DNA of 64,000 nucleotides from Escherichia coli (GTDB lineage Bacteria; Pseudomonadota; Gammaproteobacteria; Enterobacterales; Enterobacteriaceae): assembly GCF_050920415.1 (NCBI RefSeq), contig NZ_CP169309.1. One strand, 5' to 3'. The notes below the pieces were generated by a model. That model was not told the origin of the DNA, did no database searches, and saw nothing but the letters and a program-made list of their open reading frames with translations. This document shows positions 9,957 through 53,916 of this stretch, in pieces; positions within the stretch are counted from its first letter, which is position 1; the number at the start of each line of letters is the position of its first letter. The translations under genes and the position numbers were made by a program.

Positions 9957-11153
9957 TTACAGAAATGGTAAAGAAGGCATAACTCCCCGAGAAATACTGG
10001 CTAAGAAGCCTTTATCTGGTTGTTCTTCTTTATTGATTAAAGGAAGGTCATCCAAATCGCCCAGCAAATACGTATTTTTTGCCTGCCAGTCAATCATCCA
10101 TATTTTCAACAGTGGATAAGCCAGACCGCCCGTAATCCCGGATATCACCACCAACGCACACATGCGATAAAGCATACCGTGGTACGTTAAAGTTGAGCGA
10201 AAACGAATACGCCCATCATTCAGTGATAGGTTGCTCATAAAATGGTTTCGCAACGACACCGTTAAATAACTGGTGCTAACAGCAATCCCAAAATAATAGA
10301 TTAACTGCGCGATTATCATTTTACGTTGCATTTCCATAAATTGCTGTAAATTCTCAATGTCATCATTTGCATATACAGAACTATCATACGCATTTAATAT
10401 TTGATCGAAGATAATATAACCAGCAACAGCGAGAAAAGGCAATAAAGCTAAAAATGCGAGAATGGCATATTTTATACAATACGTAGTATCTAATTTCACC
10501 TTGAAACGATGTATACCGAAACTGGTATTGCTCCAGAGAAAACTCATTACCAGACTATATAAAGTACCATTAAAAATACCAATGGAAACAATACCAACTA
10601 TTGCCATCAGAACCATAGATATAATAACACTACTTGAACTATTGGCATGTAGCATCTTTGTCGAGATAAAGAAAACAGTCCCCATCCCAACGGCCATTAA
10701 AATCGGCAAGAAAAAGGTCACCCACCAGAACCCTTTCATAGAGCAATTAAAACTAAATCTTACGCCGTTGAGACTGGTCATTAAGGCCTGATGACGCAGT
10801 CCTTTTGCTGCCATAAATATAAGCAAAACCAACAGTAACAAAGTCAAAACACAACCAACAAGCGGCATATCTGCTGACACTGTCATTAAGATTGCGAAAT
10901 AGAAAAAAACAAAAACAAGACAACTAACAAAAACATTCCCACCGGTAATTCCATAAGAAAATCGTTGTCCGTTAACTTCCATATTAGCATAAAGATAACG
11001 CTTACATTTCATTAATGCCCATGGTAAATAGATACCTAACGTTATAATCGTTAACAACACATTCACCACACAAATAAGAAAATACCTCTCACCTGTACCA
11101 TGAAAAACAAACGAATGGGACGGAACATCCATTTCATTAATAACTTGAGCCAT
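9957..11153 (-). CDS. yjgN: Inner membrane protein, DUF898 family
   Basis: 398-aa polytopic membrane ORF starting MAQVINEMDVPSHSF (internal ATG of the 407-aa track ORF). Confidence 0.85.
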   Translation of the reverse strand: MAQVINEMDVPSHSFVFHGTGERYFLICVVNVLLTIITLGIYLPWALMKCKRYLYANMEVNGQRFSYGITGGNVFVSCLVFVFFYFAILMTVSADMPLVGCVLTLLLLVLLIFMAAKGLRHQALMTSLNGVRFSFNCSMKGFWWVTFFLPILMAVGMGTVFFISTKMLHANSSSSVIISMVLMAIVGIVSIGIFNGTLYSLVMSFLWSNTSFGIHRFKVKLDTTYCIKYAILAFLALLPFLAVAGYIIFDQILNAYDSSVYANDDIENLQQFMEMQRKMIIAQLIYYFGIAVSTSYLTVSLRNHFMSNLSLNDGRIRFRSTLTYHGMLYRMCALVVISGITGGLAYPLLKIWMIDWQAKNTYLLGDLDDLPLINKEEQPDKGFLASISRGVMPSLPFL

Positions 11154-11345
11154 AAAAAATCCCTGAATTAAAAAATCCATTGATATAACTTATATATACA
11201 GACAGTAAAATGTTCTGCCACGTTACAATACTCTTATCAGTAATAGACTGGCAAAAACTTTATTACTTTATAAGTCGCTTGCGCACGTAAGAAGAGAGTG
11301 GTATTAAACAAATGTATAATTACTTTATTTTTATTGGGTTAAACT

Positions 11346-51195: not shown

Positions 51196-51750
51196 ATGAC
51201 CCTACGTAAGATTCTGGCACTCACCTGCCTGCTGTTGCCGATGATGGCTTCCGCACATCAGTTTGAAACCGGTCAACGAGTGCCACCGATAGGCATTACC
51301 GATCGGGGCGAGTTGGTGCTTGATAAAGATCAGTTTAGCTACAAAACCTGGAACAGCGCGCAGTTAGTGGGAAAAGTGCGAGTACTGCAACATATTGCTG
51401 GTCGCACCTCTGCAAAAGAGAAAAACGCGACGCTGATTGAAGCGATTAAATCAGCAAAGTTACCGCACGATCGTTACCAGACCACCACCATTGTGAACAC
51501 CGACGACGCGATTCCGGGTTCTGGCATGTTTGTGCGCAGCAGTCTGGAGAGTAATAAAAAGCTTTATCCCTGGTCGCAGTTTATTGTCGATAGCAATGGC
51601 ATCGCGCGCGGTGCCTGGCAGCTAGATGAAGAAAGTTCCGCTGTAGCGGTGCTGGACAAAGACGGTCGAGTGCAATGGGCCAAAGACGGTGCGCTCACTC
51701 AGGAAGAGGTGCAGCAAGTGATGAACCTGCTGCAAAAGTTGCTCAAATAA
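51196..51750 (+). CDS. ytfJ: Periplasmic protein YtfJ
   Basis: 184-aa ORF with signal peptide MTLRKILALTCLLLPMMASA. Confidence 0.85.
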   Translation: MTLRKILALTCLLLPMMASAHQFETGQRVPPIGITDRGELVLDKDQFSYKTWNSAQLVGKVRVLQHIAGRTSAKEKNATLIEAIKSAKLPHDRYQTTTIVNTDDAIPGSGMFVRSSLESNKKLYPWSQFIVDSNGIARGAWQLDEESSAVAVLDKDGRVQWAKDGALTQEEVQQVMNLLQKLLK

Positions 51751-51781
51751 TGTTAATAACATAAATTCTGGAAAAATAAAT

Positions 51782-51812
51782 TTCCCCTATCGATATATAT
51801 GGGATAGGGGAA
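51782..51812. terminator. Bidirectional hairpin between convergent ytfJ and ytfI
   Basis: ttcccctatc gatatatatgg gataggggaa 10-bp perfect stem. Confidence 0.7.
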
Positions 51813-51850
51813 TTAAGTCTCTGAGTTTTTACGCCGAACTCATACTAGTA

Positions 51851-52774
51851 TCAATAACCCTTATTCGCGTTTAACGGTTTTACCTCTTTTTTAAACGCTT
51901 CAATGGTAGATTTATATTTCTTGTGAATCTTGTCTTCGGTATAATTACCGTTTGCGGCCAGATTTGCACTTACAATCGCTTCCACTTGCTCGGTTATTTC
52001 CACTTGTTGGTAACCTGCATTAACCAGAAAATTATAAATAAGAGAGTAATCTTCACCCTGCAAAAAAATATAAGAGCCAGTTCGAAGTTCCTCATCCCCT
52101 CCATAGATTTTAAGAGCAAAGCCCAAAGATTCTATGACCATGGCATAATTTCCATTATTTATTTTCTCGCAAAAATACCATCCTTCACATTCTTTAATGC
52201 TACCTCCTGGCCCTTCAAGTTCAAATTTACCCCGTTTTAATTTGCTTACTACATTCTCCAAATAAGCAGAATCGTAAGATAAGTTACCCGCCGCCTTCCG
52301 AAAATAACCGTTAATCCTTTCAGGTATGTCAGACTGTTTTTTCTGCAAAATATCATAGGCATACAATCTTCTATTTTGTGCTAGTGGAAATTCACGGTTT
52401 TTAAAGTCTATAAATGAGTTATACTCATTTATTGTTATAGGGATTTCTTCGTATTCAAATCCAGTGCCTCGCAATGTCATTGTATATTCGGCACCGTTAT
52501 CTTTAAGGCGGAAGCTGATAAGAAAATTATCCATGGAGTGAACGGTTTCATCTTTTAATGAAAGCACCTGATAACTATTTTTATCGATCTGTGTTGCTCT
52601 AAGAAAGAACTCCCTTAAAATTAACAGACTATCATAATTCGAAATCCAATCCCTTTTCTTAAATGCATGCTGAATATTATTAAAGAAATTATTTGAATGT
52701 ATTTTTGTATGCGATGACTTTACAAATAACTCCACTGCACCAAAAAAATTATTGTGTCTAATCTTGGGTAACAT
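51851..52774 (-). CDS. ytfI: Uncharacterized AT-rich protein YtfI
   Basis: 307-aa ORF MLPKIRHNNFFGAVELFVKSSHTKIHSNNFF; no recognisable motifs. Confidence 0.75.
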   Translation of the reverse strand: MLPKIRHNNFFGAVELFVKSSHTKIHSNNFFNNIQHAFKKRDWISNYDSLLILREFFLRATQIDKNSYQVLSLKDETVHSMDNFLISFRLKDNGAEYTMTLRGTGFEYEEIPITINEYNSFIDFKNREFPLAQNRRLYAYDILQKKQSDIPERINGYFRKAAGNLSYDSAYLENVVSKLKRGKFELEGPGGSIKECEGWYFCEKINNGNYAMVIESLGFALKIYGGDEELRTGSYIFLQGEDYSLIYNFLVNAGYQQVEITEQVEAIVSANLAANGNYTEDKIHKKYKSTIEAFKKEVKPLNANKGY

Positions 52775-52986
52775 ATGACAACCTTATTATATTTGGTTAT
52801 TCTATGTCGCCATTAAATATCTTGTTAAAGAAGTAAACTATCAAAAAATGCTCATTATTAAGATATAACTCATTAGCGTTAGAATATTTACACTTTAAAT
52901 ACAATCCCTTTATATCTATAACTTTTTAGGTTGGAAACAAATCAGGATGGCAGAATCAGGAAATACACTGTTTCTGCCATATATAT

Positions 52987-53727
52987 TTAATAAATAGAGA
53001 CTCTGAACCCAGGATTCAGGAACGACTCGCGCGGGGTATAATCCAGCGGTTTACCCTGCCAGTCGTGAACGTGCGCTCCGGCCGCTGCCGCAACTGCGTG
53101 ACCGGCGGCGGTGTCCCAAATATTGGTTGGCCCGAAACGCGGGTAAAGCTGCGCCTGCCCTTCCGCCACCAGGCAGAATTTCAGCGAAGAGCCGATAGAC
53201 GTGGTTTGATGTTCGCCAAGCTGTTGCAGATACTCTTTCAGCTCCGCATCCGCATGGGAACGGCTGATCACCACCAGCGGCGGGCGCGCATCGCGGACCT
53301 GAATCTGCTTGCGTACACCGCACTCTTCTTTCCAGGCTTTGCCGTCTGCCGCGCTGTACATTACGTTCATTACCGGCGCATACACCACACCTAAAATCGG
53401 TTTGCCGTGGTCGATGAGCGCAATATTAACGGTGAATTCACCATTACGTTTAATAAACTCTTTAGTACCATCCAGCGGGTCTACCAGCCAGTAACGCTGC
53501 CAGTGTTGACGGACTTCCCAACCGGGAGGATCTTCTTCAGAAAGGACCGGAATATCCGGTGTCAGCGTACGTAAACCGTCCATGATAACGGTGTGTGCGG
53601 CAATATCCGCTGCCGTTACCGGAGAATTGTCCGCTTTGCTGACGACGTCCATCGGTTTCGTCCCGTCGTAGACCTGCATAATGGCATCGCCTGCATTCCG
53701 TGCAAGCTGGCATACTTGATCTAACAT
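52987..53727 (-). CDS. cysQ: 3'(2'),5'-bisphosphate nucleotidase
   Basis: 246-aa ORF with inositol monophosphatase family motifs (DPLDGT, WDTAAG). Confidence 0.95.
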
Positions 53728-53916
53728 TTCTCCACCTCGTCTCTGTGAGCGGTGTTAACTTATTGTTTTACTTATACCCTATCGTTAAAGAATGCGCCAA
53801 CTGTGATAGTGTCATCATTTTCAAAGCGTTAAATTGTGGCATTCTTCACTGTTCTAAAAGTAAGAGGTTTATTCTCCCTTTTCTTTCGAATTCCCGATGA
53901 TAAAAGGATGTCCCTG

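Follow-up and report, generated by a model that had tools for sequence, protein, structure and literature searches.

A single-gene AT-rich islet, ytfI, inserted between ytfJ and cysQ and polymorphic among Escherichia coli genomes

Segments of the E. coli chromosome that are bound by H-NS have been described as AT-rich, missing from some strains and faster-evolving at non-synonymous sites than their neighbours (Higashi 2016; PMC4720273). The K-12 gene ytfI is one such case, as it was identified by ChAP-seq as an H-NS-bound strain-specific insertion (Higashi 2016, PLoS Genet, PMC4720273, S10 Fig). H-NS is also found in K-12 on the neighbouring genes cpdB, cysQ, ytfJ and ytfK, and the same four neighbours are without H-NS binding in SE11 and SE15, two strains without ytfI (PMC4720273). 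In a second report, ytfI came up as a match when ASKA clones were overexpressed to screen for HOCl resistance, its sole reported phenotype (PMC8228696). A reported sigma-32 ChIP signal at ytfI has been disputed as an artefact, and the literature yielded nothing further on the function of YtfI or on the ytfJ/cysQ junction as a hotspot. The feature analyzed here is already known, both as a named K-12 gene and as a published H-NS-bound insertion; the findings that follow are mainly confirmatory and their added value is modest.

The locus was studied in a window of 64,000 nucleotides of E. coli DNA (the whole stretch analyzed, from contig NZ_CP169309.1). The region is 100% identical in NZ_CP169399.1 (strain MFDS1022581), whose annotation gives the ORF, lying between ytfJ and cysQ, as a hypothetical protein. 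Gene identities follow the RefSeq annotation of this identical record and of K-12, complemented with Pfam, and the gene order is paeA(ytfL)-ytfK-ytfJ-ORF-cysQ-cpdB. The ORF, taken from the ORF list, extends from 51851 to 52774 on the minus strand, encodes 307 amino acids and is a rare divergent allele of K-12 b4215. It corresponds to ytfI of K-12 MG1655 (b4215, YP_026285.1) in site, orientation and junctions, the invariant hairpin (see below) is common to both, and the two proteins align over their full length. Unlike K-12 YtfI, which has 312 residues, the window protein has 307 and another C-terminal tail, and the two alleles share only 83% nucleotide and 76-78% amino-acid identity, versus a genome background of about 95%. 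When compared with the 312-aa protein cluster, window YtfI gave E = 3.5e-149, with 78% identity over 97% coverage. The window as a whole is about 95% identical to K-12, and the islet, at 78-89%, stands out as the sharpest divergence peak in 20 kb.

The initial annotation had described ytfI and a 212-bp "downstream" spacer, together covering 51851-52986, as an AT-rich islet among core genes. As far as composition is concerned, this was borne out. The GC content of 51851-52986 is 0.333, as compared to 0.507 for the window mean (z = -3.55 against all 1136-bp windows), which is far from normal, as only 1.1% of equal-sized windows are as AT-rich. Windowed GC is 0.346 for the ytfI ORF (0.419/0.302/0.318 at the three codon positions, i.e., a GC3 of 0.318) and 0.274 for the 212-bp cysQ-ytfI spacer (52775-52986), versus 0.512 and 0.549 for the flanking ytfJ and cysQ genes. 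Likewise, A/T-only runs of at least 6 nt number 40 per kb in the islet and 9.8 per kb in the window. Two details had to be amended, however. First, the direction: because ytfI is on the minus strand, the 212-bp spacer is its upstream region, lying 5' of ytfI and 3' of cysQ. Second, the extent: the 100-bp ytfJ-ytfI spacer (GC 0.32) belongs to the AT-rich insert too, and a three-way alignment of the window, K-12 and ETEC-2265, combined with the outgroup junctions, places the whole islet at 51741-52985 (about 1,245 bp, GC 0.332). These borders are uncertain by about 10 bp since the AT-rich junction sequence is degenerately duplicated.

The flanking genes give the polarity of the event. In ETEC-2265, ytfJ and cysQ overlap tail-to-tail by 11 bp (TTAATAAATAG) with no DNA between them, and an identical overlap exists in Salmonella enterica, E. 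fergusonii and E. marmotae. As this 11-bp overlap is common to Salmonella, E. fergusonii, E. marmotae and most E. coli, the empty junction is the ancestral state, and ytfI a gain. In the window, ytfJ (51196-51750, plus strand) encodes a 184-aa "occupied-site" form with the C-terminus LLQKLLK, whereas ancestral YtfJ, whose gene overlaps cysQ, has 185 residues and ends in LLHKL(L/I)(N/S)K. On the other side, the 3' end of cysQ (52987-53727, minus strand) is unaltered by the insertion. The sequence of the overlap, of about 11 bp, is degenerate at the left end of the islet (CTCAAATAATG) and intact at its right end (TTAATAAATAG); this repetition could be a decayed duplication or just what keeps both genes intact. 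No terminal inverted repeats were seen at the islet ends, and there is no transposase, integrase or recombinase in the islet, where ytfI is the sole ORF and is devoid of such a domain. As neither a donor, nor an integrase, a transposase or a clear target-site duplication was found for the islet, the case for horizontal acquisition is that made by insertion polarity and composition. As read from the aligned junctions, it is insertion polarity rather than composition that establishes the gain of ytfI.

The distribution of the gene is in line with the existence of both states in present-day populations. The uninterrupted ytfJ/cysQ junction is found in 3,795 of 5,426 complete E. coli genomes (70%), and ytfI is present in 1,605-1,621 of the 5,426 (about 30%), with the window-type allele being rare (about 20 genomes of this set). 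Presence/absence across Enterobacteriaceae had been put forward as a check of foreign origin, and ytfI proved to be confined to Escherichia and absent from Salmonella, E. fergusonii, E. marmotae and 70% of E. coli. The same site holds a third allele, with 69% amino-acid identity, in a divergent lineage of Escherichia, whose cysQ shares 89-90% identity with E. coli cysQ and whose genome ranks as its own species representative. The left junction, with the 184-aa YtfJ ending in LLQKLLK, is common to the three alleles (its Q residue is derived, as H is present in every empty site), and so is the right junction with the invariant hairpin. These identical left and right junctions argue for a single insertion, and we infer that one event lies behind all three alleles.

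This event is not recent. Across the allele pairs, dS is 0.37, 0.86 and 0.69 for ytfI and 0.19, 0.54 and 0.66 for cysQ in the same pairs; to the third allele, these values correspond to 0.69-0.86 for ytfI versus 0.54-0.66 for cysQ. As ytfI dS is within one- to two-fold of that of cysQ, the gene must be old and must largely have co-diverged with its hosts. The ancestral empty site, the three alleles with common junctions and the near-cysQ level of dS together lend support to the proposal that ytfI is an old horizontally acquired gene.

The account that we regard as probable, and by a good measure, is thus that of a single-gene cassette inserted once in an Escherichia ancestor, maintained as a presence/absence polymorphism and acting as an H-NS nucleation site. 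A cassette of about 1.24 kb, made up of ytfI, the constrained regulatory spacer upstream of it and one hairpin at either end, would have entered once, in an ancestor within the genus Escherichia and exactly at the 11-bp ytfJ/cysQ overlap, and would since have been retained as a polymorphism in about 30% of complete E. coli genomes. With 33% GC in a 51% GC genome, the islet would be a site where the xenogeneic silencer H-NS nucleates, and its product would be a soluble 35.6-kDa protein that is fast-evolving at non-synonymous sites yet under purifying selection. The overlapping ytfJ/cysQ junction being demonstrably ancestral when empty, this locus offers a clean and datable example of gene gain.

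The pattern of substitutions indicates that ytfI is a genuine gene under significant purifying selection. Its frame is open in all three alleles (306-312 codons) while the other five frames are not conserved, and its dN/dS is 0.22-0.37, with dN lower than dS (Fisher p = 1e-7 to 2e-20). The neighbouring genes are more constrained, with a dN/dS of 0.01-0.02 for cysQ and about 0.09 for ytfJ, and the non-synonymous divergence of ytfI is about 10 times that of these genes. In addition, damaged alleles are found: ytfI is marked as "frameshifted" by PGAP in strain 164, and a cluster of 251-aa proteins has 729 members. Such frameshifted or truncated forms in some lineages suggest that selection on ytfI is weak or intermittent.

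What the low GC content itself tells about origin is a separate matter. On the window branch, polarized substitutions go about equally in both directions (26 AT>GC versus 28 GC>AT), the per-site rates on this branch imply an equilibrium GC of about 0.33, which is the observed value, and GC3 is 0.29-0.33 in all three alleles despite a dS of up to 0.86. Balanced substitutions mean that the low GC is maintained and is not, in itself, a decaying donor signature; it may be upheld by mutation bias where selection is weak, or because H-NS binding is selected for. AT-richness at equilibrium also calls for caution in using low GC as an acquisition clock. On the K-12 branch, the slight excess of AT>GC changes (27 versus 15 GC>AT) hints at some amelioration.

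Balanced changes and a uniformly low GC3 are also what would be seen if the AT-richness were not foreign at all, and ytfI were instead a young de novo or decaying gene of little function, made of weakly selected and poorly expressed DNA at an AT-biased equilibrium. The absence of a donor or relative from every database searched goes in the same direction, as does the existence of frameshifted and truncated alleles. We nonetheless consider this explanation unlikely: measured against an overlap that is conserved across genera, these 1.24 kb are inserted DNA, which must have come from somewhere. Furthermore, three lineages have kept the ORF whole, with a dN significantly lower than dS, divergence in the upstream spacer is about one third of that at synonymous sites, and the K-12 branch shows the slight AT>GC excess mentioned above.

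Constraint is also seen in the non-coding DNA upstream of ytfI. The cysQ-ytfI spacer (52775-52986, minus strand), i.e., the putative ytfI regulatory region, has Jukes-Cantor distances of 0.13/0.25/0.19, and hence evolves about three times more slowly than ytfI synonymous sites (dS of 0.37/0.86/0.69). It includes the longest invariant run of the three-allele alignment, a 34-nt block at 52947-52980 (minus strand) that folds into a hairpin of -17 kcal/mol (z = -3.95) and begins 6 nt past the cysQ stop codon. This invariant hairpin is present in single copy and is restricted to the 1,619 islet-bearing genomes among the 5,426. Although it was not called by a simple terminator scan, it is probably a cysQ terminator or 3'-end stabilizer supplied by the cassette. 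A 12-codon ORF (MAETVYFLILPS) lies on the hairpin and was set aside as a probable by-product of the palindrome, which gives an ATG mini-ORF on either strand; it is not preceded by a visible Shine-Dalgarno sequence, and nothing is annotated at this place in the curated K-12 record.

Closer to the gene, the best match to a sigma-70-like promoter upstream of the ytfI start is at 52799-52828 on the minus strand (TTAACA-18-TAGAAT, 10 of 12 positions); since such matches are no commoner in the region than in shuffles, it is a candidate only. At the opposite end, where ytfJ and ytfI converge, the spacer between their 3' ends carries a hairpin with a 10-bp stem at 51782-51812 (UUCCCCUAUC...GAUAGGGGAA), the fold of 51745-51850 reaching -23.3 kcal/mol (z = -2.28). 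This hairpin, a candidate bidirectional terminator, is also conserved in the K-12 allele, while the third allele has a degenerate version of it. An Rfam search gave no match inside the islet.

In its AT-richness, its absence from some strains and its faster non-synonymous evolution relative to neighbouring genes, the window islet resembles the H-NS-bound segments reported for E. coli. It differs in that conservation is higher in its upstream spacer than in the coding sequence, while H-NS-bound upstream intergenic regions were found to be generally faster-evolving (Higashi 2016; PMC4720273). The H-NS occupancy was measured in that study on the K-12 allele, which is different from that of the window (PMC4720273). 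The gene had been proposed to be likely silenced by H-NS: the binding part of this proposal holds for the K-12 allele (PMC4720273), and silencing of the window allele would follow by analogy, as the latter is as AT-rich as the K-12 allele (GC of 0.346 versus 0.361). Given the binding seen in K-12, ytfI may be largely silent under laboratory conditions. The H-NS nucleation motif TCGATAAATT occurs six times in the islet, versus 3.4 expected; 123 of 1,000 shuffles reach six, so that this number does not go beyond what composition gives.

The protein encoded by the window allele (307 aa, 35.6 kDa, pI 7.0) is predicted to be soluble, without a transmembrane segment, and has a high content of N, K, E, I, F and Y, as AT-rich codons would lead one to expect. 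Comparison of its N-terminal and C-terminal halves by hhalign and BLASTP revealed no internal repeat. Searches of Pfam, NCBIfam, PADLOC and PHROGs gave nothing above curated thresholds. The LisH domain (PF08513) scored 19.9 bits, below its gathering threshold of 21.6, with matches in three of six alleles; the sole match in PADLOC-DB 2.0 was Cas6b, also sub-threshold (E = 0.0008-0.006, 14-17 bits over 41 residues); and phrog_3250, a phage family whose function is not known, matched five of six alleles below threshold (best E = 0.0015). A sequence profile search of the PDB returned only noise, with a nitrogenase as best match (E = 0.41). AlphaFold2 was run on shallow alignments and reached a pLDDT of 43 for the full-length protein (six alleles) and of 45 for the C-terminal half. 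With such values the models are unusable, a comparison of folds is not justified and matches to them would be meaningless; the structure prediction that had been suggested as a check was thus carried out, with a confidence too low for interpretation.

Relatives of YtfI were not found outside Escherichia. Among 5.8 billion clustered proteins, there are 17 YtfI clusters, and those with an organism name are all from E. coli or Shigella, while a profile HMM run against 1.84 billion representative proteins retrieved YtfI fragments alone. A survey of one genome per species (100,044 genomes) identified Escherichia only, plus a 1.5-kb contig binned in a Collinsella MAG, where it is almost certainly a contaminant from E. 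coli. The search for a donor among phages (by tblastn) and IMG/VR viral contigs gave no match. Four "plasmid" matches were rejected, as the corresponding records are 0.66-4.9 Mb in size (two of about 4.9 Mb and two of 655 kb) and are all predicted to be non-mobilizable. Within the scope of these searches, YtfI is a genus-restricted orphan that belongs to no characterized protein family, mobile-element class or defence system tested. The initial annotation had noted a protein with no recognizable domain and of no assigned function, and this description stands, no homology to a characterized family having emerged.

Like other Escherichia orphan genes, ytfI has no homologue outside the genus by profile HMM, no domain, AT-rich codons and a relaxed constraint. 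Unlike typical orphans, it is long (307 aa), old (three alleles, with dS up to 0.86) and preceded by a constrained regulatory region. The three deep alleles, the constrained promoter region and purifying selection argue that this orphan has some role, our best guess being that of an accessory factor whose expression is conditional and on which selection is weak or intermittent. Being an orphan of 307 aa whose simple presence/absence polymorphism occurs in a model organism, ytfI would also lend itself well to the study of how foreign genes are retained despite being silenced.

A more specific version of this role is that YtfI is a new single-gene defence or stress factor, abortive-infection-like or involved in oxidant tolerance, that H-NS would hold silent until it is required; such a proposal bears on the function of the protein and is compatible with the single-insertion account. 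Several features are reminiscent of such a factor, namely a variable, fast-evolving and AT-rich one-gene islet at a junction used twice independently, a constrained regulatory spacer and the recurrent sub-threshold matches to phrog_3250 and Cas6b, along with the match in the HOCl overexpression screen (PMC8228696). However, the PADLOC thresholds are not reached, and the recurring weak matches do not count as independent evidence because the alleles are all close relatives. Moreover, the HOCl match comes from overexpression only, pseudogenized alleles are common and the predicted structures are unusable, so that we view a defence or stress function as doubtful. An extended form of this idea would see in YtfI a functional Escherichia-specific protein of undescribed fold or family, preserved as a long-kept and possibly balanced polymorphism, with a selected regulatory region poised under H-NS, e.g., as a conditional stress or defence factor, and located at a junction that has captured AT-rich one-gene cargo at least twice. 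To this possibility we attach a low probability.

The reuse of the ytfJ/cysQ junction by unrelated cargo is seen in E. albertii. There, the junction is occupied by a 1,504-bp insert (GC 0.327) that contains a single AT-rich gene, encoding a pentapeptide-repeat protein, and YtfJ is also cut to 184 aa, as at the ytfI-occupied site. This cargo is unrelated to ytfI in sequence and in family (Pfam Pentapeptide) and has the opposite orientation; it is therefore an independent insertion. The E. albertii junction bears in turn on the proposal that ytfI was ancestral to Escherichia or to enterobacteria, and that a precise deletion removed it from 70% of E. coli as well as from the other species. In favour of such a loss are the age of the gene, its one fixed site and a dS that tracks that of the flanking genes. 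Yet the 11-bp overlap is one and the same in Salmonella, E. fergusonii, E. marmotae and empty E. coli, and independent deletions would not rebuild identical overlapping coding ends. The 185-aa "empty-site" form of YtfJ is moreover found in at least 10 further enterobacterial genera; Trabulsiella, Citrobacter, Enterobacter, Klebsiella, Raoultella and Lelliottia are among them. Together with the unrelated cargo of E. albertii, this makes ancestral presence followed by loss very improbable, and gain by a single insertion is the reading that we retain.

Spurious promoters and ORFs are frequent in H-NS-bound AT-rich DNA, and an antisense ORF of 105 aa is present at 51923-52240. That the ytfI ORF is a chance open frame in non-coding DNA, or that the true gene lies on the opposite strand, can nevertheless be dismissed as practically nil, as AT-rich sequence is rich in stops (2,000 composition-matched shuffles gave a mean of 45 open codons and a maximum of 122, versus 307 observed), antisense frames vary from 63 to 121 codons across the alleles (versus 306-312 for ytfI), the 105-aa ORF is not conserved between alleles and was rejected as a gene, and dN is well below dS. 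As a last minor observation, an IS5-like gene stands beside the third allele (L004/L005) and is specific to that lineage.

At the very same ytfJ/cysQ junction, E. albertii carries a different and unrelated insert of 1,504 bp (L009:3056-4559), with a GC content of 0.327. Its cargo is one gene, oriented opposite to ytfI, whose 385-aa product is a pentapeptide-repeat protein (Pfam PF00805, E = 7.6e-12). On at least two occasions, therefore, the ytfJ/cysQ overlap has taken up an AT-rich insert with a single gene.

At the cysQ end of the islet, comparison of the three ytfI alleles (the window type, the K-12 type and a third type from a divergent Escherichia lineage) revealed an invariant block of 34 nt, ATGGCAGAAACAGTGTATTTCCTGATTCTGCCAT, at window 52947-52980 on the minus strand. 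This block is identical in all three, including its loop, while the rest of the spacer differs by 12-21% among alleles. The same 34 nt double as a 12-codon ORF, MAETVYFLILPS, which starts 6 nt past the cysQ stop codon and whose last codon is altered in the third allele, the stop codon being nonetheless retained. Because the block is palindromic, this putative ORF is, as judged from the sequence, probably a by-product of the hairpin.

In some genomes with the third allele, ytfI is directly followed by an IS5-like transposase gene (DDE_Tnp_1 and DUF772), which replaces the ytfI-ytfJ spacer at two of the loci analyzed (L004:3967-4947 and L005:3967-4421). L007, another locus of this allele type, has an intact ytfJ at the corresponding position.

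The ytfI gene of E. coli strain 164 (L013:401-1338) is annotated as a frameshifted pseudogene. Among the matches listed, H33-H36, which include this strain and are 97.0-97.2% identical to the K-12 sequence, each span 938 bp versus 939. Truncated YtfI proteins also form clusters of their own, one of 251 aa with 729 members and others of 177-184 aa. These clusters point to recurrent inactivation of ytfI.

A K-12-type ytfI was also found on a 1,501-bp contig (JAIJJM010000759.1) binned in a metagenome-assembled genome of the actinobacterium Collinsella sp., its product being 78% identical to the window protein. We do not consider this a true occurrence beyond Escherichia, as the contig is almost certainly a mis-binned E. 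coli sequence.

Across about 48 kb (window 14720-62784), identity to K-12 MG1655 is just 94.5-96.5%, which places the strain in an E. coli lineage that branches deeply. This position probably explains the scarcity of the window ytfI allele type, present in about 20 of 5,426 complete genomes.

Just beyond the islet, in the cysQ-cpdB intergenic region, the ES239 sRNA (Rfam RF02756) is matched over its full length on the minus strand (window 53794-53916), with 149 bits for a gathering score of 62. Two more AT-rich genes are conspicuous in the window, with a GC content of about 0.29-0.39 in 500-bp windows, and are probably additional H-NS-type islets. Both lie on the minus strand: one encodes a 407-aa DUF898 protein (9957-11180), and the other is a 555-aa ORF at the position of K-12 yjgL (13634-15301), with a weak, sub-threshold match to a SopA-like central domain (E = 5.7e-4).
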